Assembly: GCA_964057225.1 (NCBI GenBank)
Contig: OZ059899.1
Span: forward strand, 12,338,001 to 12,402,000
DNA from: Auanema rhodensis
Lineage: Eukaryota > Animalia > Nematoda
DNA: 64,000 bases
Direction: 5' to 3'
Each line of letters opens with the position of its first letter. The first letter of the stretch is position 1. Below, piece after piece: positions 20,592 through 43,100 of this stretch. Under the pieces are notes generated by a model. That model did not search any database and had not been told where the DNA came from. It saw only the letters and a list, made by a program, of their open reading frames with translations. A program made the translations under genes and the position numbers.

Positions 20592-20602
20592 TGCCCTTTT
20601 TC
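20592..20602 (-). promoter_or_regulatory. E1 polypurine tract
   Basis: GAAAAAGGGCA abuts the 3' LTR; E2 has GAAAAAATGGCA at the same position. Confidence 0.8.
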
Positions 20603-21287: not shown

Positions 21288-22646
21288 TCATGCTTTCTCT
21301 TTTTGATTTTTCATCCGTGGTAACCATAATTCATCTCCATCTTCGTTCTCTGATTCCGGTTCGCTATCGGTGTTATCTTGCTCGTTTCTTTTGATCACTC
21401 TTAGTATCTCTATATCGCTGTCCTCTTCTTCTTCTTCGTAATTGTTGCGTGTATTAGAGCGGGTATTGTGAGTGATATTTTGAGTCGCGTTTGAGAAGAG
21501 TTTGAGATTATCCTTGTGGATATCTTGTATCTTTCCTGATGAATTCCTTATCTGCACCTTGGATCCTTGTACGTTAATAACTTCGTAAGGTCCGTCATAG
21601 CTTTTCCTCAGTTTCTGACCAATTTTATGTGACTTTATTGTTGTCATCACCATGTCGCCGGGTTGAATGTTCCTTTCGTGCGTCCTTTGTGTTCTATCCT
21701 TCTTCTTTCTGGCGTTTTCTTGGTTTTGGGCGATACGTTCACGTATTATTTGGTCTATTTTCATCATTTGAGGTCTTCTCGTGAGTAATTCTTCCGAAAT
21801 CTCTTTGATTTTTGTTATGGTTCCCGGTAATTCGGCATCAATTTTCATTCTGCATTCTTTTCCAAAAAGTGCTACGTATGGGGCTATGCCTGTTGTAGCA
21901 TGCTGAATGTTATTGATAGCGAATGTAATTTTCGGCAATACGCTATCCCAGTCGCTTAGATCTTCCTTCAAGTAGTGTGTTAATCCTTCCTCAAGAGTTC
22001 TGTGTAGTCTTTCGACTTGTCCGTTTGAGTTCTTTTGGTGAGGAAGGGTGGGTTCATGTTGAATTCCCAGTTTTGTACACATTTCTTCAAACTTTTGAGA
22101 TACAAAATTAGATCCTCTATCGGTGATCAGTCGATGAGGCGGTCCGTATATGTATACAAAGTTGCGTAGAAATCTGTCAATTGTTATTTCTGTCGTAATT
22201 TGCGGTACTGCTATCGTTGTTGACCATTTAGTAAAAGCATCCTGGATGGTAATAACGTAAGTACAATTCCTTTTTGACGGGGGAAAAGGTCCCATTACAT
22301 CCATATGAACTCGTTCAAAAGGCTTGGTCGGTATTTCAAATTGACCTATTGGCTGTACTGTCATAGAATGTGGGTCCTTCTTCCTTTGTGCGCATTTAAT
22401 GCAGTTTTTGATATATATCATGATATCATTTTGCATGTTGGTCCAATAAAATCTCCGTAGGATAGCTTCTTTAGTTTTATTAATTCCTTGATGCGCTGCG
22501 ATTGTAGGATCTTCGTGAAATAATTCTATTATCTCGTCCTTGATTGGATGATCTTGTGGCACAACGATTGCAGGATGTGGTTTCTTGTCTGTTGGTTTTG
22601 TGTAGAGTAATCCATTTATAACGCAATATCTATCGTTAGAGACCAT
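21288..22646 (-). CDS. E1 integrase, disconnected from pol by an out-of-frame deletion (the frame is open back to about 22765)
   Basis: HHCC motif (FHED..AHQG...CIKC), catalytic core (VHMDVMGP, ITDRGSNF, NGQVERLH) and GPY/F motif YDGPY. No chromodomain. Confidence 0.92.
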   Translation of the reverse strand: MVSNDRYCVINGLLYTKPTDKKPHPAIVVPQDHPIKDEIIELFHEDPTIAAHQGINKTKEAILRRFYWTNMQNDIMIYIKNCIKCAQRKKDPHSMTVQPIGQFEIPTKPFERVHMDVMGPFPPSKRNCTYVITIQDAFTKWSTTIAVPQITTEITIDRFLRNFVYIYGPPHRLITDRGSNFVSQKFEEMCTKLGIQHEPTLPHQKNSNGQVERLHRTLEEGLTHYLKEDLSDWDSVLPKITFAINNIQHATTGIAPYVALFGKECRMKIDAELPGTITKIKEISEELLTRRPQMMKIDQIIRERIAQNQENARKKKDRTQRTHERNIQPGDMVMTTIKSHKIGQKLRKSYDGPYEVINVQGSKVQIRNSSGKIQDIHKDNLKLFSNATQNITHNTRSNTRNNYEEEEEDSDIEILRVIKRNEQDNTDSEPESENEDGDELWLPRMKNQKEKA

Positions 22647-22741
22647 TTTCTTTTGCGTTCTATATTCGATGTCCGCGATTGTTTTCTTTATCCATAGAGT
22701 ATTTTGTTGAATTTCTTTTATAGCAGGTGTATCAATAGTAT

Positions 22742-25700
22742 TTATTCTGATCGATTCTGCGTTCCCAGTATGTATGTGCGAAATTGATTCAGTGCGTATA
22801 CTAACCCTAAGGCTTCAATTTCGATTGGTGCGTAATTGCGTTCCGCTTTTACCAGTTTTCTGCTGGCAAATGCGATAGGATGAAGATGCTTCAATGGTTG
22901 CGTGGGATCTTCTGGTTGCAATAATACTGCGCCCACTGCTATGTTGCTGCCGTCACTCTCGATAATGAATAATCGATCAGATTTTGGTGGACTTAATACG
23001 GGCGCTTGGGTGAGACTTCTTTTTAATCGATCTACAGCTTCCTGATGTTGCTTTTCCCAAGCGAATTCGGTATCCGTCTTTGTCAAATCGTACAATGGGC
23101 TTGCGATACTTGCAAAATCTTTAATGAATTTGCGAAAAAATCCAACCATTCCTAAGAATGCGCGAACGCCTGTTGCGTTCTTTGGTGCCGGATATTCTTG
23201 TATCGCAGCCACTTTTTGAGGGTCCGGTTTTATTCCTTCTCTTCCAATAATTAATCCGAGAAATTTTACTTCTGGTTGAGCAAAGGCACATTTCTTTAAC
23301 TTAATTTTCATTCCCAAACTTTCGACCGCGTATAATAATTCGTCGATATCTTCAAGGTGTTGCTTTCTTGTATCAGAGATTATCAGCAGATCGTCCAAGT
23401 ATACAAATAATTTGCAAGAGCATTTACTTTGCAAATATCTTACTGCTGTTTGAAAAGTATGAGGGGCTCCACAGAGACCCATAGGCATTCTTTTATATTG
23501 ATACGTGCCTGATGTTGTTGTAAATGCTGTTAAAGGACGATCAGATTTACGTAGTGATATTTGAAAAAATCCTGATACTAAATCAAAGTTTGAGAAGAAT
23601 TGAGCTCCAGCTGCCATGTCAACTATATCCGATATGCTTGGTATAACGTATGTTTGTTTACGCGTGACACTATTGAGGGCTCGAAAATCTGTCACGAACC
23701 TATATGTCTCATCCTTCTTCTTCACTAGCACAGCAGGGCTATTGAAGAGGGATGTAGAGGGTTCGATTATGCCTTGCTCTAGCATTTCTTTTACTTGCTT
23801 TTCCACTTCTTCCTGTTTACCAAGTGGAATCCTCGTTATTCTTGACCTTGGCATGTCCATATCCGATCTTAGTGGAATTGTATGCTCAATGGGTCCTTTA
23901 AATAGACCTATCTTCCTATCTTCATTAAGAAAGGCCTCACGATGGTTCTTAACTATGTTTGTGAGCTCGTGCTTGTCTTCATTATTCAAATCTGCTTTAT
24001 CCAGATTAAGGTCATTCATAAAATTTCTTGGAAAGTGGGGTAATTTATTCTCCCAATCTGCTTCTGGTGGAATATATGGTTGCATAGGGTCTTCTTGTAT
24101 TGTTTGCCAGCTTGGTACTTCTCCTATTGTTGCCTGCCCTATGACTGAATTAGCTTCCATAGCTAATGTTTTGTCCGTATTGTTACGGAAAACTACATAT
24201 ACTCCACTTGTCTCACGGAAAGCTGTTGGATAACTTGAAGCTAATGCATTTCCGTTGTCCCCTAAGATTACCACTTCGTTTGATTTGAGTGGTCTATCAG
24301 CTTTGATTGGAATAGTGGACTCTTCATCGGGTTGTATGATTCTTTTCTTCAAATTGATGATATTTACTGTTATTGCCGTTTGTTTAATGGCGTCCTGTTC
24401 AATTAAAGGGAGTGCGTAATTTCCGATCTCTAGCATCTTTTTCGATGGTTTTAAACTGACATCAATGTTTTCACTGTCGAGCGTGCTCATAAAGTCCATC
24501 CCAATAAGAGCAGGGGCTGGGCAATCACAGTCATTTGAGACCAAAAAGGTATGTTCTATCTCATAGCCAGCAATTTCGATGTTTAAATTTATTTTTCCGT
24601 ATAATGTAAACGTTGTTTTGTTTGCTGCCATTGCCACTAATCGTCGCTTTTTGACGTGTTGAGCCATGTTCAGGTATTTTAATGTCGATAGCCTGACATA
24701 TGAGACTGACGAGCCTGAATCCCATAAAGCTAATATCAGCTTATCTTCTACTGATATATAGATAAGTGGTAGCTTTGTTTCTTTTGATTTAATAAAAGCA
24801 ATAAATGGTATTGCTAGTGGAATGAATGTTACGAGCGCCGGGTAATACTGCTTCATTATATTTTCTGGCATTGGTTGGTCTGGGCGGCTAACGAGTTCTA
24901 ATGTTTCCTCGTAGCCTGGGGGCTCGTTGTCTGCTCTTTGAATATGCATGACTGGTAGTGGCATTGCTTTGAAAAAGTAAAATTTTCCGGCAAAGATGGT
25001 AATTATGATTGCTGCAATGATTAGAACAGTAGATCCTATTAATATTAAGGTTCTTTCAATTGTCCCCATTAAGAATTGTTTTATGCTATTCCCGGCTGTA
25101 GTTGTGAACTCAGTTGCTTTCGAAATATAATCGCTGCCCTTTTTCAAAAGAATAAAGGCTGACGTTATCTTTGGGTCGTTGTGAATCGTATTTAGTACGT
25201 GATTTTGTCGTATTGAAGCTAAACTAGCTCCATACGCTATTGCGGTAGTCATTGAATAGACTCTTGATGAAAGATTAGTATAAAGATGAGCACCTGTAAA
25301 TTTTAAAGGCGTAACTTTATGTTGGTGAGCTCCATCAAAAAGTGTGATGGGATTGACTTCCACAGACCCATTAATGTTCATCCATTCCCCGTTTTTCTCA
25401 TAAATATCAGTTGGTACGTGTTCGCAGTCGATTTCTTTCCCGTACGAGAGTAAATCTCTTGATCCCGGTGCTGCGAAATATAATTTGTTGTCTTCGGTTG
25501 TTACTGGTGTCTCTAAGTAACATGTTTCATTGATTTTATGAGAGTGGTGAACGGTTTTAGGCTCTATTGGAAGGCATATGTGAACATGAACTATTTCGCT
25601 GCCCACGAAACGCGCTGCTATGTCTTCTCTGCCAAGGATTGTTCTCATTGCTATGGTTGGCTCTATTTGGAGAATTGAACGCCACAATTCGAGATATCTA

Positions 25701-28700
25701 TTTTGTATCTCGCATATGGATTCGTAAGATTCCATAAAATGCTTTTGCAATTCTTCCTGTATAAGAGTGGTTGCATATTGTAGATGATCTTGCGCTATTC
25801 TCTGAGATATATTCTGTTTATATTGTATCTCGTTGTTTACTTTGGAGCCTATATAATGTGCTTGCGCTTGTACTGCTTTCGTTTCAATCTCCAAAGGTGG
25901 TGATGACGTTCTCTGCTTTCTTTGCGATCTTAAAGACATATCTGTGACCGTTGCAAACGTAGTAATAGGCTGTTCTTTGTGAACACCATATATTAATGTA
26001 ACCGTTGTTGGCGCGCGCGTGGATGTTATGGCTTGAGTTGTATCGATCTCTGGCGTTGTTTGAGGGTCCTGGATTAGCTTTGTTACTTCCGTTGTTGTCG
26101 TTATATATTCAGTTTTGTCCGTCAGGCGTCTGGTTGAGTAGGGAGGTGTTCTTTTATCCTCTAGTAGCGGTAGAAAGGTTTGAATGAGAAGATTTCGTGT
26201 ATATTTGTTAGGACTTTTTGTTTGTTGATGGGGCCCAACAGGTATACCAAAATTATTCTCCATATCTCGATATAATTTCTCTATATCTGGCAGGATAATA
26301 GTTGGTACAGGCAGATGTCGAAATCTTTCATCGTCTGCTCTGGCCGCTGTTCGATTGGGTTTTATTGTACGTAGTTTGAGAACTTGGTGATATAGGTCAA
26401 TTGTTTCTTTAATAATCAGTTGTTCCTTTTCGTTATTAGTTGATAATACGGGCCTGATTGGCGGCATGTTTACAAATGCTTTCAAAACTTCTTGTTTTGA
26501 TGGCACCGACATGTTATTTTGAGCGAAAATGGTCGGTGTAAATGCCAACTCGAGCGCTATACTTTCGGTTCGCTCTCGATAACTTCCTTCTTTTGTGAGT
26601 ATTTTTTCGTCAAATTCTTCTGCTGTTAATCTATCGCCTATCTGCTCTAAAAGTTGCAAGGAGGTGAGGTATTTAACGGCTCCTCTTGTGGTAGCTGCCA
26701 GTTCTTTTTGGGCGAAGAATTGAAGCATTGCTTCTTCCGGGTCGTAGAATTCATATATTTTTAAGAATCTTTCTATTGATCTATCCGAAGTAGTGCTTCG
26801 TAGGAAGAATTTGAACTGCTCGGGATGTGCTGAGATCCACTTAACGATAGAATATGTTGGATCTATTGTCCGTCTGGCTCGAATTATAGGAATTATTTGT
26901 GATATCCCAGGGTTACTCATTACTGGACGTAAAAATGGGTATGGGCATATGTTCAATGTTAAAGTTTCGTAGTCTTCTTGTTCTTTTATCCAGCTTTCGT
27001 CCAATTGCAGTGCGCATTGCGCTATAGCCCTTTTTTGACGCTTAGCTGGCAACTTTTTATATTCTCTTTCAATTAAGTTGTGTATATTACTGTCATTTGG
27101 ATATTTTGGAAAAAGTATATAATTGCCCGTGGTTGATTGAAATATAGGTTGCGGAAAACATGATGTAATCTGTTTTGGAATTTGTTTATTGTCGATAACA
27201 AGGGCTGACTGCGTATTGGGAATCAGTATTATGCTGTCTCCAATGATGGCATCATATTCGCTCATGTCTATATAGTTGCATCTCTGTTCGTATGATTGGA
27301 TTTCCCAGATGATCATTGAAGTATTGGATGCGCATTGGCCATGATGTGCAAGACAGCCTTCCGTATTGAGTAATAGATTTGTCAATATGGTGTCGTCTGG
27401 CATCCTGGTCATAACGCCTCTTTCCAAAACCAGTCGTTCTTTTTCTTCGCATTGTTCGTAATTGAATGAGCGCGCTGGAGAGAATGTAGGTTCGGTTGTC
27501 GCGTATGTCAAGCTATCCAATTTAATCAGGTCTTCTGATTTCCATTTACGGTCGCGGACAGCCAGTCTACATTCGTTTTCTGTTGTTGGCTCAATTCGAA
27601 CAATGGAGGAGTTATGATCTCTTAAAAATAGCAAATCCCTGATGCATATTTTATGTATTTCTTTTGAACATCGCCATGAATCCCATTCGTGAGCCGTCTG
27701 GTTTCTTGTATACAGATGTATGTTTGTGCGGAGGACATGTTTGGTAGGTGGTATTGTGCATTTCCTCAGGGGTGGGGGTATAAGGAGGGCTCCACCTGTA
27801 GCTTTAGTGCACATCTGATAAGCATCAGTTATAGTGATTAGTGATAAGATCACTGATAAAGCTACTGCTAGTGTTAAGGGGGATATCAAGGTCAAATTAT
27901 TGACTCTTGAGCCTCTTCCTCTACCTCTATTATTGTTGTTTCCCCTGAAGGGATTATTACCGCGTTGACGGTTATCACTCTCCTGATTACGTGATAAGTT
28001 GTTATTTCTTTGATACCAATTTGGATTTGAGAAATTTCTACCGCGATTACCAAGATTGCGGTTTCTTGCGAAAGAATTTTGCAGATTTTGTGGTTTCTGA
28101 TTATTTGATGAATTTTGATAACTTTGATAATTTTGATAATTTTGGTAGTTTCTATTGTTAAATGATTGATAGCCTCTACCGATTCCTCGCCTTCCGGTGT
28201 CGCGCCTGGGAGGGAATGTTCTATCGATTGCGTTAACCAGTAGCGCCTGAGGGTCGGATACTTGGTTAGCAATTGATTCCTCCCATCTGGCATTATCAAT
28301 TGCCTCGGCAAACGTTTTTGGTTTAGCTCTGATTACCCCCGGGCGTATTGTGTTTTTGAGACCGCGTAGAAAGGTGGATCTAAGGATATGGTCCTTGTGT
28401 GGGTCTGTATGGGAGAAAGCGTTTAAGCTTAGGCTTCGTAAAGTTTGTGCGAATCCATCCACTGATAGCTCGCCTTGGGTGGAATTCTGTAGCGTTATCA
28501 GCGCCGGATCTTGATTATACTCTGGGCATAGCCTAGAGGTAAGTTCTTCGATGAGAGTATTCCACGAGCCAGATGTCTTGATAGTATCGCTAAGCTGTGT
28601 ATAAGCTTCTTCAGCTCGTTCGTTTTTGAGAAGTAATGGTAAGATTGTTAATCTTTCGGGCATAACTAAGCCTAAGGCGTTTGCAAAGGTGTTAAACTTG

Positions 28701-30004
28701 GCCACGAAGTCTCTAAAGTTGCGACTTCCGTCGTATATAGGGCAATATGGGGAGCTTAATGCCTGAGCAATGGTAGATTTACCCGCTCCTGGAAGCCGTG
28801 ATGTTTCGGTCATTTCGGATGAGATGCCCTCAGGGTATGTGATAGGTGATATTATCACTTCGCTCCTTGTTGGATCTTGATGAGTGTGTTCTATTGCCTT
28901 AGGGTTTCTGCTAGAGGAGCCTATTATAGGTGTAGTTGTTGCGAAACGGGCTCTTGGAACCTGGATGACTTTACCAGATGCCTGAGGCGATGTTCTATCA
29001 GTTGATCGTGAGCTAGGGATCGCACTATCTGATCTGTTAAGATTAGGATTATGTGAAGAAAACCGGGGTTTTGCTGTTCCGCTGGGTGTTGTGTTATCGC
29101 CTGGGGATAAGTTTAAAATCTTTATCAGTCGATTTGTTAAAGATCTTTTGTTTTTAAACTTATCAGTTGTTAATGATAAGGGTGAAGCTTCTTGTATGCC
29201 TTCGAGGCTGGCTTCTGCTGACAGAGTTTCTGTTGCGCGCTTACTGGGTGTTTTTGTCTTCCGCTTATTAGGGATATTCTTTTTGATCTTATCAGTGATT
29301 TTTGATAAGGATGAAGGGTTGTCACTAGGTTGGGTGGGTTCTAAAGTTAGCGAATGTGGTTGATTAATAGGCGTGGAAGACGCTTGCGGGCTTTGTGTTA
29401 ACCCGAAGGATGGGGAAGGTGCGTTATCAGTGATAACTGATAAGTTCGACGCGTTTGGGTCTGAGGTTACCGGTGAGGCAGATGCGGTTGTCGGCTTTTT
29501 CTTTTGAATTTTTCGCAAATTTTTATTAGTATCAACTGAGCGTACCTTGGGATTTGTAGTTGGAGTTTGAGTGCTGTCGTCGGCTATGATGAAGTCCGGG
29601 TCTTCGTCGGTGTCGTCAGAAGGTGAATATGTACCTTCTCGGGGAGTATAGAACTTGTCGACTTGCGGCTTCGGCTTCTCGTCTGGTTGGTGCGGTTCTT
29701 CTATTTGAACACTGAGAAGTCGGGTGCGGCTTCGGGTACGACTTGCGACAGTAGCGTCACTGTTGGTATCGGACGGGTAAAGGGCTGGGAAAGCCGATGA
29801 GAATCTTTTGGCCACCTTTGTAGGACTTTTGGTTTGGAAAAACCGAGAATGGTGAGCTACGTGTGGGATGTTGATGTAAGGTGCGTAAGATTCTTTTAGA
29901 TGTGTGTTGGGAGAGAGAGAGATTCGGGAGCAATAGGATAGTCGTGCTTCGCTGGGCGATGCGGAGGGTAAATGAGAGGGAGTTTTCCAAATCGTGGCCA
30001 CCAA
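22742..30004 (-). CDS. E1 polyprotein: Ser/Thr/Pro-rich extension - Gag - signal peptide - gB-like Env - TM - protease - RT - truncated RNase H
   Basis: Gag capsid-like region from Met at 28813 (PIYDG..F..F...F; FLRGLK..IR). Hydrophobic signal at about 27821-27893, Cys-rich ectodomain with RQKR, TM at about 24988-25053. Protease LWDSGS, RT YLDD, RNase H SDGS...EIEALG, ending prematurely after YILG. The true start codon is uncertain. Confidence 0.92.
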   Translation of the reverse strand: MVATIWKTPSHLPSASPSEARLSYCSRISLSPNTHLKESYAPYINIPHVAHHSRFFQTKSPTKVAKRFSSAFPALYPSDTNSDATVASRTRSRTRLLSVQIEEPHQPDEKPKPQVDKFYTPREGTYSPSDDTDEDPDFIIADDSTQTPTTNPKVRSVDTNKNLRKIQKKKPTTASASPVTSDPNASNLSVITDNAPSPSFGLTQSPQASSTPINQPHSLTLEPTQPSDNPSSLSKITDKIKKNIPNKRKTKTPSKRATETLSAEASLEGIQEASPLSLTTDKFKNKRSLTNRLIKILNLSPGDNTTPSGTAKPRFSSHNPNLNRSDSAIPSSRSTDRTSPQASGKVIQVPRARFATTTPIIGSSSRNPKAIEHTHQDPTRSEVIISPITYPEGISSEMTETSRLPGAGKSTIAQALSSPYCPIYDGSRNFRDFVAKFNTFANALGLVMPERLTILPLLLKNERAEEAYTQLSDTIKTSGSWNTLIEELTSRLCPEYNQDPALITLQNSTQGELSVDGFAQTLRSLSLNAFSHTDPHKDHILRSTFLRGLKNTIRPGVIRAKPKTFAEAIDNARWEESIANQVSDPQALLVNAIDRTFPPRRDTGRRGIGRGYQSFNNRNYQNYQNYQSYQNSSNNQKPQNLQNSFARNRNLGNRGRNFSNPNWYQRNNNLSRNQESDNRQRGNNPFRGNNNNRGRGRGSRVNNLTLISPLTLAVALSVILSLITITDAYQMCTKATGGALLIPPPLRKCTIPPTKHVLRTNIHLYTRNQTAHEWDSWRCSKEIHKICIRDLLFLRDHNSSIVRIEPTTENECRLAVRDRKWKSEDLIKLDSLTYATTEPTFSPARSFNYEQCEEKERLVLERGVMTRMPDDTILTNLLLNTEGCLAHHGQCASNTSMIIWEIQSYEQRCNYIDMSEYDAIIGDSIILIPNTQSALVIDNKQIPKQITSCFPQPIFQSTTGNYILFPKYPNDSNIHNLIEREYKKLPAKRQKRAIAQCALQLDESWIKEQEDYETLTLNICPYPFLRPVMSNPGISQIIPIIRARRTIDPTYSIVKWISAHPEQFKFFLRSTTSDRSIERFLKIYEFYDPEEAMLQFFAQKELAATTRGAVKYLTSLQLLEQIGDRLTAEEFDEKILTKEGSYRERTESIALELAFTPTIFAQNNMSVPSKQEVLKAFVNMPPIRPVLSTNNEKEQLIIKETIDLYHQVLKLRTIKPNRTAARADDERFRHLPVPTIILPDIEKLYRDMENNFGIPVGPHQQTKSPNKYTRNLLIQTFLPLLEDKRTPPYSTRRLTDKTEYITTTTEVTKLIQDPQTTPEIDTTQAITSTRAPTTVTLIYGVHKEQPITTFATVTDMSLRSQRKQRTSSPPLEIETKAVQAQAHYIGSKVNNEIQYKQNISQRIAQDHLQYATTLIQEELQKHFMESYESICEIQNRYLELWRSILQIEPTIAMRTILGREDIAARFVGSEIVHVHICLPIEPKTVHHSHKINETCYLETPVTTEDNKLYFAAPGSRDLLSYGKEIDCEHVPTDIYEKNGEWMNINGSVEVNPITLFDGAHQHKVTPLKFTGAHLYTNLSSRVYSMTTAIAYGASLASIRQNHVLNTIHNDPKITSAFILLKKGSDYISKATEFTTTAGNSIKQFLMGTIERTLILIGSTVLIIAAIIITIFAGKFYFFKAMPLPVMHIQRADNEPPGYEETLELVSRPDQPMPENIMKQYYPALVTFIPLAIPFIAFIKSKETKLPLIYISVEDKLILALWDSGSSVSYVRLSTLKYLNMAQHVKKRRLVAMAANKTTFTLYGKINLNIEIAGYEIEHTFLVSNDCDCPAPALIGMDFMSTLDSENIDVSLKPSKKMLEIGNYALPLIEQDAIKQTAITVNIINLKKRIIQPDEESTIPIKADRPLKSNEVVILGDNGNALASSYPTAFRETSGVYVVFRNNTDKTLAMEANSVIGQATIGEVPSWQTIQEDPMQPYIPPEADWENKLPHFPRNFMNDLNLDKADLNNEDKHELTNIVKNHREAFLNEDRKIGLFKGPIEHTIPLRSDMDMPRSRITRIPLGKQEEVEKQVKEMLEQGIIEPSTSLFNSPAVLVKKKDETYRFVTDFRALNSVTRKQTYVIPSISDIVDMAAGAQFFSNFDLVSGFFQISLRKSDRPLTAFTTTSGTYQYKRMPMGLCGAPHTFQTAVRYLQSKCSCKLFVYLDDLLIISDTRKQHLEDIDELLYAVESLGMKIKLKKCAFAQPEVKFLGLIIGREGIKPDPQKVAAIQEYPAPKNATGVRAFLGMVGFFRKFIKDFASIASPLYDLTKTDTEFAWEKQHQEAVDRLKRSLTQAPVLSPPKSDRLFIIESDGSNIAVGAVLLQPEDPTQPLKHLHPIAFASRKLVKAERNYAPIEIEALGLVYALNQFRTYILGTQNRSE

Positions 30005-30227
30005 TCTGACTCCGCCTATCTACCGTAAGCTTATTATAGTTAATGATGTTTATCTCTTCTCAAAAACTATTTTTATCCGCTCTTGCACTTTCCTCTAAAT
30101 TTGTTTTCTTACTGCTCTAGAATCTTCAAAAAAAAACTTTATTCATGTCGTCCCCTTTGTACTTTTGCGGCCTTTGGACATTTATTTTAAGGTTAGAAAC
30201 AAAAGAAAAGAAAAGAAAGAAAAAAAA

Positions 30228-30772
30228 ATGGATTTCCAACGTTATAATCCCACTGGCATGACTTATGTCCTGTGGAAATTATACGAATCCATCGTTGAAT
30301 ACGATGGAGAAGGAGTTTTGGCTTATAGGCCACATCCTGATATAATTTTGATGGTTTGTGTATCTCCATTTTATGTTTGATTATTTGATTACTTTAGTTT
30401 ATCGAAGATCTCCAAATGTATTATTTGGGGCAGGGCCATATAAACTTTGCCACCTTCTTAGATGTAGCTCCCGAAGTGGAGCTTGTTGGTCGAAGGTGCT
30501 TAGTTGATCTATGCGCTCATGTATATAATGATAGGGCCGGTTTATTAACCGCACGTCCTTGGGCCTGGTACCAGGAAAAGAGTCATTTTTATTATTATTT
30601 ATTATATAGATTATTGTTTAAAATCTATATTGTTTATGATGACTCATTATTTGGTTTGGAACTTAGGGTTTCGCGAGGTTTAGAATATAGTGAAGATTTA
30701 AATGCGAGCGAAACTCCTATGTTTTTTGCCTCTGAGTTTCGAACTCGGTTGCAAATCAAATATGGGTATTGA
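30228..30772 (+). CDS. Spliced antisense accessory gene in the E1 leader, about 166 aa, unknown function
   Basis: AAAATG start at 30228. A 44-nt GTTTGT...CTTTAG intron (30354-30397) joins two ORF-track ORFs in frame (..PDIILM|FIEDLQMYYLG..). TGA at 30770-30772 is followed by AATAAA at 30776-30781. Confidence 0.7.
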
Positions 30773-31752
30773 CTGAATAAAGTTTGTACTCTGTGTTTTT
30801 ATTTTTGTGCACTTTGCTCTGTTTTCGTCAAGAAAACGGACTTATGTTTTCAATCTTTTCCTCATTCCTTTTCCCTTAAATAGCATGTTTTGCTCAAAAT
30901 GTTTTCGACATTGTGCATGCTAATGAGGTTTGAGGAGAGTTATTGAAAAGGCTGTCCTTTTTCTTGATCAAAATAAGCAAAAGTGCGTTTTCCTAAGCTA
31001 ATTTCTTTTTAAAAATGAGAAAAATACGTCTATTTTTAAACATTTCCCATTTACTTAGGATTACTGTAGGAGATAAGGGGTATCTTATGAGTTGAAACAA
31101 CGAAATGATTTGAGGAAGGTGACATAATCTACGGGGATAAAATCCGTAGCAGTTATGCTTCCGCCAACTTGACCTGACTGTCAAATAAGAGCTGAGAAGT
31201 CTTATTGCAGATTTACCAGGCTTTTTCGGACTAGTGTGGTCTCTTTTTATATTCAATTTATGTAACCGTTTTTGGTTTCCCGCAAAATAATATGTAAAAT
31301 GATCTTTTACGTCTGAATATAATAATTTTTCAAAATTCTAGTCCTGACCACAAATATACAAACTATAAACAATTGCGCGCGTCTTATAAATTTTTGTTCC
31401 AATTATCAAACTTCTCTATGCCCAAAAAAAAAATGTGAACAATTATAATTTCTCGTTTGGCGAAATTGTCCTCTATTTCAATCCAAACGTCCTCAAAATG
31501 GCATGAGAAGCGGTACAAGATACGATAAAGAAAAGGGTGGACATTCAGACGGTTTTTAAATTGAGGACGGCGGGCAAAAATTTTATTGGTCCTATCTCGC
31601 ATTTAAGCGAGATCCCTTGTATCTGTACCTTAAAACAAATTGGCGCCTTCATTTTGTTGTTTCAAGTGGAGGAATTTATAATTTAGAATGCAAAAATGGA
31701 CTTTTACAATAAAAAAAATTTTTTTTTTTTTTTTTCCAAAAGATGAGTTCGA

Positions 31753-31765
31753 GGTGGAACCTCCA
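31753..31765 (-). promoter_or_regulatory. E1 primer-binding site, tRNA-Gln
   Basis: TGGAGGTTCCACC directly follows the 5' LTR and is complementary to GGTGGAACCT-CCA, the conserved 3' end of metazoan tRNA-Gln. Confidence 0.88.
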
Positions 31766-32110
31766 CGTTCCGTTATGCTCCTGCGTCGATAATATAAACC
31801 ATTGTAGTTTATACTATGACGCGCATAGTATTCCTTGGTGTAGCGGTAAGGAATAAAGAGCATAAGGTCAATCATAAGATAAAAGAGAGAAAGATTTATT
31901 GGCATGAAACTACAACAATAATATACAAAGATAAAGATACAATACAATAAGATAAATATAAGTATAAAGACTAAACTACAAGCCGTCCATGAGCTTGCTA
32001 AGAGGCGAACTCCCGACCAAGGGAACGAGGGAAGGCGGAGCCATTCCTCGGTCCTCTGGTCGTCTGGCTCTAACCCTTCAGCTACATATATGGGGAGTCC
32101 GAATGGAACG
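31766..32110 (-). repeat. E1 5' LTR
   Basis: 345-bp copy of 20247-20591, followed on the minus strand by the PBS. Confidence 0.95.
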
Positions 32111-35100
32111 TTTTATTATATAAAATATTTTGATATCTACGAAGGGTCGACAAGAACCATTTGAGCATCAAGAGTTTCAACAGACAACAGGTGAGATGGC
32201 CGAGCGGTCTAAGGCGCTGGTTTAAGGCACCAGTCTCTTCGGAGGCGTGGGTTCGAATCCCACTCTCATCAGAATCCTTTTATTATAAAAAACATTTTGT
32301 TATATACGAAGTGTCGACAAGAACCATTTGAGCATCAAGAGTTTCAACAGACAACAGGTGAGATGGCCGAGCGGTCTAAGGCGCTGGTTTAAGGCACCAG
32401 TCTCTTCGGAGGCGTGGGTTCGAATCCCACTCTCATCAGAATCCTTTTATTGTATAAAACATTTTGATATATACGAAGGGTCGACAAGAACCATTTGAAC
32501 ATCAAGAGTTTCAACTGACAACAGGTGAGATGGCCGAGCGGTCTAAATCGCTGGTTTAAGGCACCAGTCTCTTCGGAGGCGTGGGTTCGAATCCCACTCT
32601 CATCAGAATCCTTTTATTGTATAAAACATTTTGATATATACGAAGGGTCGATCGGGATCATTTGATTATCAAGAGTTTCAACAGACAACAGGTGAGATGG
32701 CCGAGCGGTCTAAATCGCTGGTTTAAGGCACCAGTCTCTTCGGAGGCGTGGGTTCGAATCCCACTCTCATCAGAATCCTTTTATTGTATAAAACATTTTG
32801 ATATATACGAAGGGTCGACAAGAACCATTTGAGCATCAAGAGTTTCAACAGACAACAGGTGAGATGGCCGAGCGGTCTAAGGCGCTGGTTTAAGGCACCA
32901 GTCTCTTCGGAGGCGTGGGTTCGAATCCCACTCTCATCAGAATCCTTTTATTGTATAAAACATTTTGATATATACGAAGGGTCGATCGGGATCATTTGAG
33001 CATCAAGAGTTTCAACAGACAACAGGTGAGATGGCCGAGCGGTCTAAGGCGCTGGTTTAAGGCACCAGTCTCTTCGGAGGCGTGGGTTCGAATCCCACTC
33101 TCATCAGAATCCTTTTATTATATAAAATATTTTGTTATCTACGAAGGGTCGACAAGAACCATTTGAGCATCAAGAGTTTCAACAGACAACAGGTGAGATG
33201 GCCGAGCGGTCTAAGGCGCTGGTTTAAGGCACCAGTCTCTTCGGAGGCGTGGGTTTGAATCCCACTCTCATCAGAATCCTTTTATTATATAAAATATTTT
33301 GATATCTACGAAGGGTCGACAAGAACCATTTGAGCATCAAGAGTTTCAACAGACAACAGGTGAGATGGCCGAGCGGTCTAAGGCGCTGGTTTAAGGCACC
33401 AGTCTCTTCGGAGGCGTGGGTTCGAATCCCACTCTCATCAGAATCCTTTTATTGTATAAAACATTTTGATATATACGAAGGGTCGATCGGGATCATTTGA
33501 TTATCAAGAGTTTCAACAGACAACAGGTGAGATGGCCGAGCGGTCTAAGGCGCTGGTTTAAGGCACCAGTCTCTTCGGAGGCGTGGGTTCGAATCCCACT
33601 CTCATCAGAATCCTTTTATTGTATAAAACATTTTGATATATACGAAGGGTCGACAAGAACCATTTGAACATCAAGAGTTTCAACTGACAACAGGTGAGAT
33701 GGCCGAGCGGTCTAAGGCGCTGGTTTAAGGCACCAGTCTCTTCGGAGGCGTGGGTTCGAATCCCACTCTCATCAGAATCCTTTTATTATATAAAACATTT
33801 TGATATCTACGAAGGGTCGACAAGAACCATTTGAGCATCAAGAGTTTCAACAGACAACAGGTGAGATGGCCGAGCGGTCTAAGGCGCTGGTTTAAGGCAC
33901 CAGTCTCTTCGGAGGCGTGGGTTCGAATCCCACTCTCATCAGAATCCTTTTATTGTAAAAAACATTTTGATATATACGAAGGGTCGATCGGGATCATTTG
34001 ATTATCAAGAGTTTCAACTGACAACAGGTGAGATGGCCGAGCGGTCTAAGGCGCTGGTTTAAGGCACCAGTCTCTTCGGAGGCGTGGGTTCGAATCCCAC
34101 TCTCATCAGAATCCTTTTATTATATAAAATATTTTGTTATCTACGAAGGGTCGACAAGAACCATTTGAGCATCAAGAGTTTCAACAGACAACAGGTGAGA
34201 TGGCCGAGCGGTCTAAGGCGCTGGTTTAAGGCACCAGTCTCTTCGGAGGCGTGGGTTTGAATCCCACTCTCATCAGAATCCTTTTATTATATAAAATATT
34301 TTGATATCTACGAAGGGTCGACAAGAACCATTTGAGCATCAAGAGTTTCAACAGACAACAGGTGAGATGGCCGAGCGGTCTAAGGCGCTGGTTTAAGGCA
34401 CCAGTCTCTTCGGAGGCGTGGGTTCGAATCCCACTCTCATCAGAATCCTTTTATTGTATAAAACATTTTGATATATACGAAGGGTCGATCGGGATCATTT
34501 GATTATCAAGAGTTTCAACAGACAACAGGTGAGATGGCCGAGCGGTCTAAGGCGCTGGTTTAAGGCACCAGTCTCTTCGGAGGCGTGGGTTCGAATCCCA
34601 CTCTCATCAGAATCCTTTTATTGTATAAAACATTTTGATATATACGAAGGGTCGACAAGAACCATTTGAACATCAAGAGTTTCAACTGACAACAGGTGAG
34701 ATGGCCGAGCGGTCTAAGGCGCTGGTTTAAGGCACCAGTCTCTTCGGAGGCGTGGGTTCGAATCCCACTCTCATCAGAATCCTTTTATTATATAAAACAT
34801 TTTGATATCTACGAAGGGTCGACAAGAACCATTTGAGCATCAAGAGTTTCAACAGACAACAGGTGAGATGGCCGAGCGGTCTAAGGCGCTGGTTTAAGGC
34901 ACCAGTCTCTTCGGAGGCGTGGGTTCGAATCCCACTCTCATCAGAATCCTTTTATTGTAAAAACCATTTTGATATATACGAAGGGTCGATCGGGATCATT
35001 TGATTATCAAGAGTTTCAACTGACAACAGGTGAGATGGCCGAGCGGTCTAAGGCGCTGGTTTAAGGCACCAGTCTCTTCGGAGGCGTGGGTTCGAATCCC

Positions 35101-36813
35101 ACTCTCATCAGAATCCTTTTATTATATAAAACATTTTGTTATATACGAAGTGTCGACAAGAACCATTTGAGCATCAAGAGTTTCAACAGACAACAGGTGA
35201 GATGGCCGAGCGGTCTAAGGCGCTGGTTTAAGGCACCAGTCTCTTCGGAGGCGTGGGTTCGAATCCCACTCTCATCAGAATCCTTTTATTGTATAAAACA
35301 TTTTGATATATACGAAGGGTCGATCGGGATCATTTGATTATCAAGAGTTTCAACAGACAACAGGTGAGATGGCCGAGCGGTCTAAGGCGCTGGTTTAAGG
35401 CACCAGTCTCTTCGGAGGCGTGGGTTCGAATCCCACTCTCATCAGAATCCTTTTATTGTATAAAACATTTTGATATATACGAAGGGTCGACAAGAACCAT
35501 TTGAGCATCAAGAGTTTCAACAGACAACAGGTGAGATGGCCGAGCGGTCTAAGGCGCTGGTTTAAGGCACCAGTCTCTTCGGAGGCGTGGGTTCGAATCC
35601 CACTCTCATCAGAATCCTTTTATTGTATAAAACATTTTGATATATACGAAGGGTCGACAAGAACCATTTGAGCATCAAGAGTTTCAACAGACAACAGGTG
35701 AGATGGCCGAGCGGTCTAAGGCGCTGGTTTAAGGCACCAGTCTCTTCGGAGGCGTGGGTTCGAATCCCACTCTCATCAGAATCCTTTTATTATATAAAAC
35801 ATTTTGTTATATACGAAGTGTCGACAAGAACCATTTGAGCATCAAGAGTTTCAACAGACAACAGGTGAGATGGCCGAGCGGTCTAAGGCGCTGGTTTAAG
35901 GCACCAGTCTCTTCGGAGGCGTGGGTTCGAATCCCACTCTCATCAGAATCCTTTTATTGTATAAAACATTTTGATATATACGAAGGGTCGATCGGGATCA
36001 TTTGATTATCAAGAGTTTCAACAGACAACAGGTGAGATGGCCGAGCGGTCTAAGGCGCTGGTTTAAGGCACCAGTCTCTTCGGAGGCGTGGGTTTGAATC
36101 CCACTCTCATCAGAATCCTTTTATTATATAAAATATTTTGATATCTACGAAGGGTCGACAAGAACCATTTGAGCATCAAGAGTTTCAACAGACAACAGGT
36201 GAGATGGCCGAGCGGTCTAAGGCGCTGGTTTAAGGCACCAGTCTCTTCGGAGGCGTGGGTTCGAATCCCACTCTCATCAGAATCCTTTTATTGTATAAAA
36301 CATTTTGATATATACGAAGGGTCGATCGGGATCATTTGATTATCAAGAGTTTCAACAGACAACAGGTGAGATGGCCGAGCGGTCTAAGGCGCTGGTTTAA
36401 GGCACCAGTCTCTTCGGAGGCGTGGGTTCGAATCCCACTCTCATCAGAATCCTTTTATTGTATAAAACATTTTGATATATACGAAGGGTCGACAAGAACC
36501 ATTTGAGCATCAAGAGTTTCAACAGACAACAGGTGAGATGGCCGAGCGGTCTAAGGCGCTGGTTTAAGGCACCAGTCTCTTCGGAGGCGTGGGTTCGAAT
36601 CCCACTCTCATCAGAATCCTTTTATTGTATAAAACATTTTGATATATACGAAGGGTCGACAAGAACCATTTGAGCATCAAGAGTTTCAACAGACAACAGG
36701 TGAGATGGCCGAGCGGTCTAAGGCGCTGGTTTAAGGCACCAGTCTCTTCGGAGGCGTGGGTTCGAATCCCACTCTCATCAGAATCCTTTTATTGTATAAA
36801 ACATTTTGATATA
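32111..36813 (+). tRNA. tRNA-Leu(AAG) array block 2, 28 copies
   Basis: Gene starts run from 32190 to 36699; 4509 = 27 x 167. Confidence 0.95.
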
Positions 36814-37150
36814 CGTTCCATTCGGAAATCAATACGTAGCAGGCGGGTTAGAATCAGACGACATGAGGCTGAGAGAGGACGACACGCCCTTCATATGGAA
36901 CACAGACTTCAGCTTTGCCTTATGGAATGACTATGGATGGTTGGTCTTCCTTTCTTAGCTCTCTTTCACTTTATATCTTTATGTAGACTTATATAACTTA
37001 TTGTAATCATGTAGACATAATAAACCTTTCTTTCTCGAGTCTTATGTTTATCCATTATGCTCTTTATCTACCGCTACATCTGGAATACTATCACACTCAT
37101 CTTGTAGGCTTTATTGGTCTATAGGATCGACGTGAGAGCATAACGGAACG
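36814..37150 (+). repeat. E2 5' LTR
   Basis: Direct repeat of 39801-40137; AATAAA at 37019-37024. Confidence 0.95.
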
Positions 37151-37163
37151 TGGAGGTTCCACC
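37151..37163 (+). promoter_or_regulatory. E2 primer-binding site, tRNA-Gln
   Basis: TGGAGGTTCCACC abuts the LTR and is identical to the E1 PBS. Confidence 0.88.
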
Positions 37164-38502
37164 TCGAACATTTTATCTTGATTTCTTGACTATTTTCTCT
37201 TATATTTCGTTATTTTCCATATTTCATTGAATCTGAATTCTCTTATATCTCTAAACCATCTACTCCATGTCTTAACACAATACGGTGGGGCCAACAACGT
37301 TTAAAAGGGAACAGATGCAAGGACCACTCCTTTTGGAGATGGATTTTATATTTTTTGAAACTGAAGTTATATTTTCCCGTTTGTTCACAATTTTCTGTCT
37401 GTCTGAACCCAACAATTTTTATATCCTTGCTGTTAACATCGAATACTCTGTTACCCGAACTCGAAGCATTTTTGAGGACCCTAGGATGAATTAGTGAACA
37501 AATTCACCCAAGGATAATTTTTATTGAGATTTATGCCCACACTTTCTCTATTTAAGGATTGATTTTGGCTTCGAGGAAAGAATAGCCACGGTTATTTCTT
37601 TATTTTTTGTGGATGAAACAATTTTGCGCACCAAATTGAGATTATTTCATATTTTGCGATCAGGACTATTTTATTTTGAGTTACATTTCTGTTCAGACAA
37701 CTTTTTGCCATTAACATCCAAAAATATTTTGATAACGCATTGAATTTACACGGGAAACTTCACCTAAATGGGAGGAATATTATGAAAAGTGAATTTTAAG
37801 ATCGCTATAGTCCGAAAAATCCTGTACAATTTTACGAACTGAATTATTATTAGTGATTGTCTATCAGGTCGTGTTGGCTTAAGCATATCAGTTTGGATTT
37901 TCTCCCCTTACTATATGTCACCTTCCTCATACCATTATTGTTGTTTTGAAGCATAAGACTCATTCCTAAACACCATAATTCTTTAAATATAGTTATTGTA
38001 ATCTTTAGTCATCTATTCCTAGCCATAATTTTAAAACTAGATTTCTGATCATGATGGGACTACGGTACTCATTCGTTTTCCAAATTGCTTCCTTAAAAAA
38101 TAATGCTATTACGAATGTACATTACAAAAACCGCTAAAATCCTTTGAACATTTACCAAAGTCCATTTTCGTGGCATTTTCGATCACTCGTGAGTCCAAGA
38201 AGATCAGAATCGTCAGAAAAAGAAAAAAAAATGGGAATAAGGACTAATGAGATTGCTCAGGCATCAATCAAGTGAGCACTGAACATTTTCGAACATATAC
38301 AAACTGGTTGAATTATATACATTTAAGAATATTAAATTGGAAAGCGAACAAAGTCCAAATTTTCATACGGTAGTAGGCGGATCTCTGTTAAAGGCCACAA
38401 CTTAGATTCATTCCTTAACGCCGACTATACAAACCAGTTACTCACAGCTTTCTCACCTCTTTTCCAAAATTCCTTATCCATAACACTCATTAACGTCTCA
38501 AA

Positions 38503-39092
38503 ATCCCCCACGTTACTAAACACTCAAGGTTTTTCCAAACCAAGAGCACTACCAAAGTGGATAAGCGATTCCGATCAGCTGTACCTCTCAGTACACGAAC
38601 TGATTTTGATCTGCGAGACTCAGCTCCACTCACCAGAAGCCGAGCTCGCGCACAGAGCACCGCTATAATCAACGACGAGCAGAAAGCCGAGCACAAAACC
38701 GAAAAATTCTTTACTCCTCGTGCAGGCACTTATTCACCTACTGAACGATTAAGCGACAAGGATTACGTACCACCAGGAGGAGAAGAAACATCCGTCATAG
38801 TGGAAGAACAAACACCAGTTACTGCTAAAAAGGAAACATGGTACAACTCAAGAATCCATTTGGAAAAATTCAAGACGTACACAAAGACAATCTCATACTT
38901 TTTGAACGAAAAATGGACCATACAATCGCTCAAAACACGCGATCAAATACAACGACTTATGACACGGACGACGACAGCGATATTGAGATCATAAAAGTCA
39001 TAAATGGTAACGATAACTATGACTCTACTGAAGAAACAGAACCAGAAGACCCATCGGACCAAAATTGGCTACCACCAAGAAGAAGACGATAA
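38503..39092 (+). pseudogene. E2 coding remnant: polyprotein N-terminus fused out of frame to the integrase C-terminus
   Basis: IPHVTKHSRFFQTKSTTKVDKRF and KFFTPRAGTYSP match E1 IPHVAHHSRFFQTKSPTKVAKRF and KFYTPREGTYSP. From about 38840, VQLKNPFGKIQDVHKDNL matches E1 integrase VQIRNSSGKIQDIHKDNL. Confidence 0.9.
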
Positions 39093-39800
39093 AAGAAATA
39101 ATTTCGAGATTAATAAAATTATTGTAAAACTTTGTATCAACTCTCTTTTAAAAAAAAAAAAAAAGAACCAGAGCTATTAATATTATTATATCATTGAAAA
39201 ACTTGAGTTAGACGAGATGTAAGCTAATAATCAAAAAGCATTTCAGTTTCAAAGCATATATGATTATAAAACTTCATCAATTTCAAATAATTTCCCGTAA
39301 ATAAAGAAGAAATGAAAGATAAGAGACATTATATTGCATATTCATCTGAGCAACAGTCCTTATCAAGTAGTTGATGATTCAATTCCGGAAATTATATGGG
39401 ATTTAATTTAATTTTTTTTATTAATACAATTCGCTTTGAATACGCTGAGGAAACATGCTAGCTCCATCGATAATATAGCATGACTCTCGTTTCTCTAAAC
39501 TCAAACAAGTTAGACATGCAGCGTCGTGCCTAAAAAGCTATTTTGCGCACTCTCGCTTACAAAATATAGCCCTGGTATTCTAAAAGATTGTTTTATTACT
39601 TAATATTCATGTATTTTCAAATAATTTTTATTAAATTCTTTTCAGATAATATTCTTTAACACTATATTGTAATTTATCTTTACTATTTTTATGTTAAAAT
39701 TGTAATTTTTGATTTTTAAAACTAAACCTTCTGCTACGATTGGAACAAGCCACATATTTTGCTATTCGCGAGGACGCGACATAAACTCGAAAAAATGGCA

Positions 39801-40137
39801 CGTTCCATTCGGAAATCAATACGTAGCAGGCGGGTTAGAATCAGACGACATGAGGCTGAGAGAGGACGACACGCCCTTCATATGGAACACAGACTTCAGC
39901 TTTGCCTTATGGAATGACTATGGATGGTTGGTCTTCCTTTCTTAGCTCTCTTTCACTTTATATCTTTATGTAGACTTATATAACTTATTGTAATCATGTA
40001 GACATAATAAACCTTTCTTTCTCGAGTCTTATGTTTATCCATTATGCTCTTTATCTACCGCTACATCTGGAATACTATCACACTCATCTTGTAGGCTTTA
40101 TTGGTCTATAGGATCGACGTGAGAGCATAACGGAACG
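39801..40137 (+). repeat. E2 3' LTR
   Basis: Preceded by PPT GAAAAAATGGCA (39789-39800). Confidence 0.95.
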
Positions 40138-43100
40138 TATATACGAAGGGTCGATCGGGATCATTTGAGCATCAAGAGTTTCAACAGACAACAGGTGAGA
40201 TGGCCGAGCGGTCTAAGGCGCTGGTTTAAGGCACCAGTCTCTTCGGAGGCGTGGGTTCGAATCCCAGTCTCATCAGAATCCTTTTATTATATAAAATATT
40301 TTGTTATCTACGAAGGGTCGACAAGAACCATTTGAGCATCAAGAGTTTCAACAGACAACAGGTGAGATGGCCGAGCGGTCTAAGGCGCTGGTTTAAGGCA
40401 CCAGTCTCTTCGGAGGCGTGGGTTCGAATCCCACTCTCATCAGAATCCTTTTATTGTATAAAACATTTTGATATATACGAAGGGTCGATCGGGATCATTT
40501 GATTATCAAGAGTTTCAACAGACAACAGGTGAGATGGCCGAGCGGTCTAAGGCGCTGGTTTAAGGCACCAGTCTCTTCGGAGGCGTGGGTTCGAATCCCA
40601 CTCTCATCAGAATCCTTTTATTATATAAAACATTTTGATATATACGAAGGGTCGACAAGAACCATTTAGGCATCAAGAGTTTCAACAGACAACAGGTGAG
40701 ATGGCCGAGCGGTCTAAGGCGCTGGTTTAAGGCACCAGTCTCTTCGGAGGCGTGGGTTCGAATCCCACTCTCATCAGAATCCTTTTATTGTAAAAAACAT
40801 TTTGATATATACGAAGGGTCGATCGGGATCATTTGATTATCAAGAGTTTCAACTGACAACAGGTGAGATGGCCGAGCGGTCTAAGGCGCTGGTTTAAGGC
40901 ACCAGTCTCTTCGGAGGCGTGGGTTCGAATCCCACTCTCATCAGAATCCTTTTATTATATAAAACATTTTGTTATATACGAAGTGTCGACAAGAACCATT
41001 TGAGCATCAAGAGTTTCAACAGACAACAGGTGAGATGGCCGAGCGGTCTAAGGCGCTGGTTTAAGGCACCAGTCTCTTCGGAGGCGTGGGTTCGAATCCC
41101 ACTCTCATCAGAATCCTTTTATTGTATAAAACATTTTGATATATACGAAGGGTCGACAAGAACCATTTGAGCATCAAGAGTTTCAACAGACAGCAGGTGA
41201 GATGGCCGAGCGGTCTAAGGCGCTGGTTTAAGGCACCAGTCTCTTCGGAGGCGTGGGTTCGAATCCCACTCTCATCAGAATCCTTTTATTGTATAAAACA
41301 TTTTGATATATACGAAGGGTCGATCGGGATCATTTGAGCATCAAGAGTTTCAACAGACAACAGGTGAGATGGCCGAGCGGTCTAAGGCGCTGGTTTAAGG
41401 CAGCAGTCTCTTCGGAGGCGTGGGTTCGAATCCCAGTCTCATCAGAATCCTTTTATTATATAAAATATTTTGTTATCTACGAAGGGTGGACAAGAACCAT
41501 TTGAGCATCAAGAGTTTCAACAGACAACAGGTGAGATGGCCGAGCGGTCTAAGGCGCTGGTTTAAGGCACCAGTCTCTTCGGAGGCGTGGGTTCGAATCC
41601 CACTCTCATCAGAATCCTTTTATTGTATAAAACATTTTGATATATACGAAGGGTCGATCGGGATCATTTGATTATCAAGAGTTTCAACAGACAACAGGTG
41701 AGATGGCCGAGCGGTCTAAGGCGCTGGTTTAAGGCACCAGTCTCTTCGGAGGCGTGGGTTCGAATCCCACTCTCATCAGAATCCTTTTATTATATAAAAC
41801 ATTTTGATATATACGAAGGGTCGACAAGAACCATTTAGGCATCAAGAGTTTCAACAGACAACAGGTGAGATGGCCGAGCGGTCTAAGGCGCTGGTTTAAG
41901 GCACCAGTCTCTTCGGAGGCGTGGGTTCGAATCCCACTCTCATCAGAATCCTTTTATTGTATAAAATATTTTGATATATACGAAGGGTCGACAAGAACCA
42001 TTTGAGCATCAAGAGTTTCAACAGACAACAGGTGAGATGGCCGAGCGGTCTAAGGCGCTGGTTTAAGGCACCAGTCTCTTCGGAGGCGTGGGTTCGAATC
42101 CCACTCTCATCAGAATCCTTTTATTATATAAAACATTTTGTTATATACGAAGTGTCGACAAGAACCATTTGAGCATCAAGAGTTTCAACAGACAACAGGT
42201 GAGATGGCCGAGCGGTCTAAGGCGCTGGTTTAAGGCACCAGTCTCTTCGGAGGCGTGGGTTCGAATCCCACTCTCATCAGAATCCTTTTATTGTATAAAA
42301 CATTTTGATATATACGAAGGGTCGACAAGAACCATTTGAGCATCAAGAGTTTCAACAGACAGCAGGTGAGATGGCCGAGCGGTCTAAGGCGCTGGTTTAA
42401 GGCACCAGTCTCTTCGGAGGCGTGGGTTCGAATCCCACTCTCATCAGAATCCTTTTATTGTATAAAACATTTTGATATATACGAAGGGTCGATCGGGATC
42501 ATTTGAGCATCAAGAGTTTCAACAGACAACAGGTGAGATGGCCGAGCGGTCTAAGGCGCTGGTTTAAGGCACCAGTCTCTTCGGAGGCGTGGGTTCGAAT
42601 CCCAGTCTCATCAGAATCCTTTTATTATATAAAATATTTTGTTATCTACGAAGGGTCGACAAGAACCATTTGAGCATCAAGAGTTTCAACAGACAACAGG
42701 TGAGATGGCCGAGCGGTCTAAGGCGCTGGTTTAAGGCACCAGTCTCTTCGGAGGCGTGGGTTCGAATCCCACTCTCATCAGAATCCTTTTATTGTATAAA
42801 ACATTTTGATATATACGAAGGGTCGATCGGGATCATTTGATTATCAAGAGTTTCAACAGACAACAGGTGAGATGGCCGAGCGGTCTAAGGCGCTGGTTTA
42901 AGGCACCAGTCTCTTCGGAGGCGTGGGTTCGAATCCCACTCTCATCAGAATCCTTTTATTATATAAAACATTTTGATATATACGAAGGGTCGACAAGAAC
43001 CATTTAGGCATCAAGAGTTTCAACAGACAACAGGTGAGATGGCCGAGCGGTCTAAGGCGCTGGTTTAAGGCACCAGTCTCTTCGGAGGCGTGGGTTCGAA

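Follow-up and report, generated by a model that had tools for sequence, protein, structure and literature searches.

An antisense gene, probably spliced, in the 5' leader of an envelope-bearing Ty3/Gypsy element of the nematode Auanema rhodensis

Can an LTR retroelement carry an intron-containing gene on the strand opposite to its own genomic RNA, and if so, what might such a gene do for its carrier? The question is raised by a locus on contig OZ059899.1 of Auanema rhodensis, where a first-pass annotation of a 64,000-nucleotide stretch (hereafter the window) had pointed out two apparently junk open reading frames that can be joined in frame through a 44-nt GT-AG intron. These frames lie antisense to a retroelement designated E1, between its 5' LTR and gag. 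According to our analysis, the antisense gene is very probably real, and there is a good probability that it is spliced as drawn in Table 1; its origin and role are considered below with more reserve.

The host element and its antisense gene

E1, a recently inserted element with identical LTRs, occupies positions 20247-32111 of the window on the minus strand. Its domain order according to Pfam is gag, env, protease, RT, RNase H and integrase, with the gag and protease matches below the curated cut-offs, and its envelope is of the gB/class III type (PF24664, E 3.6e-17; PF00606, E 4.2e-9, the latter below the cut-off). Judged by its LTRs, domain order and envelope type, E1 is a nematode GAG-ENV-POL Ty3/Gypsy element with a gB-type envelope. 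This order in combination with a gB-type envelope has been reported in nematodes (PMC13524379), and E1 shares both features with the elements described there. The sole relative found for the envelope region (1 of 4790 candidates) is a protein of Auanema sp. JU1783 that is 49% identical, and scans of metagenome, viral and prokaryote contigs with the RT and env of E1 returned no relatives. The pol of E1 is broken near 22745-22815, because the RNase H profile ends at position 72 of 105 and because E1 has 121 nt where a related contig has 335 nt. Since pol is split despite the identical LTRs, movement in trans or a very recent break may be considered for E1.

Two peculiarities of the sense strand deserve mention. 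The first Met of the 2425-codon gag frame is found only at codon 403 (28813-30019), yet the start of the frame is conserved with E2, a related element in the same window; an upstream sense-strand exon or a non-AUG start seems to be needed, and the motif TACGGTAG, common to E1 and E2 at the start of the frame, may be a splice acceptor. Moreover, the PBS-like 19-mer (31747-31765 in E1, 37151-37169 in E2) is present in identical copies that can form a small hairpin, and no complement of it was detected elsewhere in the 64-kb window with up to 4 mismatches allowed.

Table 1. Features of E1, of its antisense gene and of the related element E2 (positions within the window)
Feature	Position	Strand	Remark
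3' LTR of E1	20247..20592	-	identical to 5' LTR, 346 nt
Integrase, separate frame	21288..22814	-	Pfam positions; pol broken near 22745-22815
gag/env/protease/RT/truncated RNase H, single 2425-codon frame	22742..30019	-	Pfam positions
TTTTAAG, candidate trans-splice or upstream acceptor	30185..30191	+	from sequence only
Exon 1	30228..30353	+	ATG behind A-run; 42 codons
Predicted intron	30354..30397	+	44 nt, GT-AG, phase 0, GTTTGT...TTTAG
Exon 2	30398..30772	+	124 codons and TGA; 62/125 identical to P0001, E 3e-30
AATAAA, candidate poly(A) signal	30776..30781	+	T-rich tract behind
Part of 5' leader collinear with E2 37170-37958	31083..31745	-	alignment
PBS-like 19-mer adjoining 5' LTR	31747..31765	-	same 19-mer in E2
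5' LTR of E1	31766..32111	-	identical to 3' LTR, 346 nt
E2, related internally deleted element	36813..40138	+	no antisense gene

The anatomy of the gene given in the first-pass annotation was reproduced in full: the coordinates and phase of the two exons, which sum to 166 codons, the start codon at 30228 directly behind a run of A, the AATAAA next to the stop, and the upstream TTTTAAG, whose role as an acceptor is that of a candidate. Short introns are typical of nematodes. The predicted intron has a GC content of 25% vs 39% and 37% in the exons, and contains stops in both flanking frames. The first codon positions are the GC-richest in the antisense gene, as in gag-pol, and the stretch of exon 2 contains 5-12 stops in each of the other five frames. 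If a further GT, at 30360, served as the donor, the intron would have 38 nt and the product 168 codons; the donor at 30354 carries the +5 G that is part of the donor consensus, and the exact choice between the two is predicted, not proven.

Against dinucleotide shuffles of the 1746-nt leader, taken on both strands (n=500), a one-intron frame of at least 166 codons arose 3 times in 500 when any GT..AG pair was allowed and never (0/500) when a TTYAG acceptor was demanded. With the acceptor given, an in-frame exon of at least 42 codons starting with ATG was encountered in 60 of 5000 shuffles for any GT, in 11 of 5000 with the +5 G, and in 1 of 5000 when an A-rich start was added, these last two, stricter criteria having been picked after the sequence was seen. 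An AATAAA as near to the stop as in the gene was found in 144 of 5000 shuffles. The support for exon 1 is thus statistical, with no contribution from a homolog. About 9.6 kb separate the coding part of the gene from the 3' LTR of E1, and no spliced frame antisense to the 3' region of E1 does better than 43 codons. Contigs of three sequencing runs, with a word share of 0.00 and aligned at 80% likeness, do not cover 29885-31039, which has no bearing on expression, and 30175-30972 is likewise left uncovered. A snoRNA over the A-run was considered and dismissed, as a single Rfam match was weak and below the threshold.

The gene is flanked by a 12-nt inverted repeat (30134-30145 and 30774-30785), which places an AATAAA also on the sense strand of E1 in the leader; such a repeat is expected by chance at a frequency of about 4-5% (85/2000 shuffles, 82/1606 natural background pairs). 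An inversion of the whole cassette between these repeats, hinted at by a 16-mer around the A-run and ATG that E2 also has, but oppositely oriented, was rejected as chance-level: its score was reached by 10 of 300 natural background pieces, the match disappeared once the A-run was left out, and tests of the flanks gave negative results.

E2 has its own identical pair of LTRs (339 nt, about 74-77% like those of E1 where alignable) and is devoid of most of gag-pol; it is a diverged deletion derivative rather than a sister copy of E1. From the LTR as far as 31083 the two leaders align collinearly, and they do so once more where gag starts (none of 300 background pieces scored as high). The stretch between these two firm blocks measures 1208 nt in E1 and 539 nt in E2, i.e. 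669 fewer, and the two sub-intervals of it that were aligned score at the background level. The difference is therefore a replacement that does not align, not a demonstrated clean insertion. E2 has no match to exon 1, exon 2 or the homolog P0001 described below, and its best antisense spliced frame has 74 codons. The earlier claim that E2 lacks the cassette stands as far as the gene and the shorter interval are concerned; one of its anchors, AAGTCC.TTTT, proved unreliable, as it matches E1 twice (31703 and 30843). A contig from run X1 has a short, E2-like leader (598 nt vs 1266 nt in E1) from which the gene is also absent. Because both E2 and this contig lack the gene, it is not universal in the E1/E2 lineage. 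The best conserved block of the two leaders (31083-31177 in E1, 37864-37958 in E2; 77% over 96 nt) recurs in runs X1 and X2 and exhibits no consistent reading frame; possibly it is a packaging signal or another RNA signal.

Coding capacity, splicing and predicted product

Among 1.84 billion representatives, exon 2 has a sole match, the predicted protein P0001 (E 3e-30), which comes from a single Logan record, a contig of 1035 nt. The two sequences are identical at 62 of 125 positions (50%) and positive at 86, all gaps are in-frame, and the similarity extends from codon 1 of exon 2 through the shared position of the stop. At 50% identity, a frame evolving neutrally would be expected to remain without a stop with a probability of about 0.002-0.004. 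Of the 59 differences 24 are conservative vs 25-28% expected (P 0.006-0.024), an excess that weakens to P 0.052 if the expectation is set at 30%. Exon 2, which the homolog spans as a whole and with matching ends, is thus under selection at the protein level.

A word-indexed protein search with exon 2 gave 0 matches, a profile built from exon 2 and P0001 recovered only P0001 among 91 candidates, and locus scans for the antisense gene in contigs of metagenomes, viruses and prokaryotes revealed no relatives. Named proteins, in a collection that includes annotated Auanema proteins, gave no match to the gene either; this speaks against its being a conserved gene of the host. The tie of the gene family to retroelements stands on one copy, that in E1.

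The homolog also bears on the splice. The first in-frame Met of exon 2 is codon 7, and it is kept in P0001; of the six residues ahead of it four are identical in P0001, with F-x-E-D-L conserved. In E1 this motif sits directly after an in-frame TAG, and since the stop precedes it and the first Met follows it, F-x-E-D-L could be translated solely after splicing. P0001 has three extra N-terminal residues, M-F-Q, ahead of the similarity with exon 2. The acceptor consensus of nematodes is of the TTYCAG type, and M-F-Q fits such an acceptor read in frame, as it would be by a gene-calling program blind to introns; the chance of F,Q is 0.0016, and that of any residue encodable by a codon ending in AG is about 0.09, an argument taken from the protein, not from DNA. 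From the start of the similarity at codon 1 of exon 2 and its end at the shared stop, the identity ahead of the Met and the M-F-Q residues, we infer that the gene is likely spliced from two exons and that the splice is likely conserved in the homolog.

The predicted product does not resemble any family we searched, in agreement with the initial failure to recognize it. Pfam gave 0 families for exon 1, exon 2 or P0001 (hence also no TRP28), as did NCBIfam; a PDB sequence search gave 0 matches; PHROGs returned 3 weak rows (E 0.12-0.5), for P0001 only; and the Atlas provided no usable match for exon 2. A DUF3800 assignment of P0001 (Atlas 0.81) was discarded, as the score lies within the range of shuffled proteins and is unsupported by Pfam. 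Two predicted structure models are poor (mean pLDDT 45.9 and 41.9), yet both are four-helix; Foldseek found 0 matches to them at E 0.001, and the best VIA-align Z was 4.7 and 5.9, respectively. A likeness to four-helix domains, which we take to be of the tyrosine-recombinase core-binding kind, appeared in 5 of 50 VIA-align rows of one search (Z 3.5-3.8) and in none of the other, and was set aside as noise. The product is rich in aromatic residues but lacks a membrane segment, its hydropathy over 19 residues reaching 0.91 at most, and no catalytic motif was found in it. The net charge is -3 and -4 for the two exon products and -10 for P0001, and none of them contains a basic or Arg-rich RNA-binding stretch. 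To the extent that the models can be relied upon, an acidic, helical, soluble product would be more in keeping with a small adaptor that binds proteins than with an export factor that binds RNA.

Possible origins and roles

The frames might be chance products of an AT-rich leader, where a lone open frame of 124 codons occurs in 84/2000 shuffles; however, a homolog that matches in frame and at both ends, with E 3e-30, largely refutes chance, to which we give almost no credence. The suggestion that exon 2 alone codes, from the Met at codon 7, with exon 1 and the intron being accidental, draws on the conservation of that Met in P0001, itself predicted as a single open frame that begins with a Met, and on the lack of a homolog for exon 1. 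Nonetheless, the identity of four of the six residues ahead of the Met and the scarcity of comparable ATG exons in the shuffles (just 60/5000) make it highly unlikely. It could also be imagined that the antisense RNA is the working product, acting by pairing with the leader or by interference with genomic transcription, with the protein incidental: such a transcript would match the leader by full complementarity, and antisense RNA roles have been discussed in other elements (PMC7264820, PMC10186651). Such a role could coexist with a coding one, but it does not explain why exon 2 is conserved as a protein with in-frame gaps only, and as the sole function it seems most improbable.

A more serious question is whom the gene serves. 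It may be cargo, i.e. a gene of the host that evolves fast, or part of another mobile element, that was moved into the leader as DNA, with its intron, and that is of no use to E1. This would be in line with the absence of the gene from E2 and from the E2-like contig of run X1, with the failure of the E1 and E2 intervals to align, and with the inverted repeat 30134/30774 on either side of the gene. On the other hand, inverted repeats of this kind also arise by chance in some of the shuffles and background pairs, no target-site duplication stands out, named host proteins give no match, and the identical LTRs allow little time for a later insertion; we consider cargo rather unlikely. If the gene does serve E1, a Rev- or CERV-like factor for the export of unspliced genomic RNA would be a candidate, as the nematode element Cer1 requires one (PMC10309623) and the Met-less start of gag hints at splicing on the sense strand, hence at an export problem. 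However, CERV is a 517-aa sense product in the gag frame, and the gene considered here encodes 166 aa, is antisense, and specifies acidic products without an Arg-rich stretch. Export is therefore the weakest of the three roles that had been suggested, and very unlikely.

We lean, by a modest degree, towards an accessory gene borne by the element, likely spliced, and likely encoding a regulator that binds a host protein and tempers the silencing of the element. Taken separately, the proposition that the gene belongs to E1 is fairly probable, and the more specific proposal that the 166-aa product works in the germ line as an adaptor for a silencing or chromatin factor of the host is tentative and argued by analogy. 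In such a scenario, an internal promoter near the boundary of the leader and gag would give rise to a short antisense mRNA, which would be spliced, perhaps trans-spliced at 30191, and polyadenylated just past 30781 with a very short 3' UTR. The genomic RNA would be transcribed from the opposite strand, and the intron would be copied intact in every round. An intron that reads CT..AC on the genomic strand is no substrate for the spliceosome, and it is because the genomic RNA carries the intron backwards that it would survive retrotransposition. The position of the gene inside identical LTRs implies that gene and intron together went through reverse transcription, unless the gene arrived after the insertion. 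The original proposal of an antisense accessory gene with a surviving intron has been borne out as regards a protein-coding gene, its antisense orientation, its location between identical LTRs and its predicted intron, which reads CT..AC on the genomic strand, and the gene probably moves along with the element. The product would tune host silencing, as has been proposed for SDG-1 in the Cer9 element of C. elegans. It is tempting to go further and to regard envelope-bearing retroelements in nematode tRNA arrays as carriers of an undescribed family of intron-bearing antisense leader genes, whose small protein, of no recognized fold, blocks or retunes the small-RNA silencing of the host; this generalization is speculative and, at present, unlikely. 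If true, it would constitute a transposon-encoded silencing suppressor in nematodes, missed by ORF-based annotation owing to its strand and its intron.

Relation to known systems and genomic setting

Antisense accessory genes of retroelements are already known; the location in the 5' leader and the protein family appear, from our searches, to be new. Extra antisense ORFs have been described in Ty3/Gypsy elements of plants and fungi such as maize Grande (gene23), rice RIRE2, Retand (TRP28) and Botrytis Boty (brtn) (PMC7264820, PMC11963269). According to the parts of the literature available to us, they mostly occupy the interval between pol and the 3' LTR and are of unknown function (PMC7264820, PMC11963269, bioRxiv 2021.04.13.439636), Grande gene23 has its own internal promoter (PMC7264820, PMC11963269), and extra ORFs may also sit upstream in either orientation (PMC7264820). 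The gene of E1 resembles these ORFs in being an extra gene within the LTRs, antisense to gag-pol, and differs from them in its position upstream of gag, its animal host, its predicted intron and the lack of a Pfam domain; the word "intron" is absent from the main text of either of the two papers on the plant antisense ORFs.

Closer to home, sdg-1 and its paralogs reside in the Cer9 and Cer8 elements of C. elegans and have been proposed to tune silencing (PMC11793870, PMC13277809). As far as these accounts go, SDG-1 is, like the E1 product, an orphan and poorly foldable protein inside a nematode LTR element, and sdg-1 has been described with exon junctions; its mass is about 35 kDa vs the 166 aa of the E1 product, and SDG-1/ZK262.8 gave no match in our protein searches, two of which were restricted to 68-219 aa. 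CERV, the genomic RNA export factor encoded on the sense strand of C. elegans Cer1 (PMC10309623, PMC3315495), is described as a protein of 517 aa with five exons and H, M and G domains that shares the gag frame (PMC10309623). It is likewise an accessory protein of a nematode Ty3/Gypsy element, translated from a spliced mRNA, as the E1 product would be by its predicted splice; by contrast, the E1 gene is antisense, in a separate frame, and has 166 codons. The deltaretroviral genes HBZ and APH-2/3/4, reported as spliced antisense genes for regulatory proteins (PMC10186651), lie antisense inside a retroelement, as the E1 gene does, and have the kind of splicing that is predicted for the E1 gene from its sequence and the homolog. 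They belong to vertebrate retroviruses and are driven by the 3' LTR, and a bZIP domain is present in HBZ; the E1 gene showed no likeness in sequence to HBZ or APH.

The word "antisense" does not occur in the main text of PMC13524379, and the portions of PMC7084138, PMC5408684, PMC9984802 and PMC9071541 at our disposal contain nothing on such a gene. Titles and the beginnings of abstracts in the literature likewise revealed no nematode element with an intron-bearing antisense gene ahead of gag, and we found no prior description of a gene in the slot upstream of gag in an envelope-bearing nematode Ty3/Gypsy element. The annotation of retroelements seeks long sense ORFs, and short spliced antisense genes are therefore overlooked. 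How elements of this kind deal with silencing by piRNAs and 22G RNAs has so far been linked to CERV and SDG-1 in C. elegans, and the product of the E1 gene provides a small, expressible candidate for their study.

Most of the window (2063-55329) is a tandem array of about 220 copies of a 167-bp unit, in which ARAGORN identified a tRNA-Leu(AAG) in 5 of 5 units of the scanned stretch. The insertion sites of E1, of E2, of the solo LTRs and of a BEL/Pao element are alike: none is more than about 30 nt downstream of a tRNA, and each falls at the T-run or directly behind it. It is possible that two superfamilies of elements target tRNA genes. The BEL/Pao element (55330-64000, minus strand) has an open frame of at least 2483 codons with a phlebovirus G2-type envelope, and an extra frame at 55736-56254 (173 codons, 0 Pfam matches) with Cys/His knuckles. 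Two identical blocks of 854 nt (50815-51668 and 54162-55015) contain a solo LTR of the E1 family (97.5% to the LTR of E1) split by a MITE-like insert of about 530 nt with inverted ends of 30 nt; they probably represent one insertion that was duplicated along with the array. Large tandem tRNA arrays have been reported in germ-line-restricted DNA in a preprint on an Auanema species (10.64898/2026.08.27.747507).
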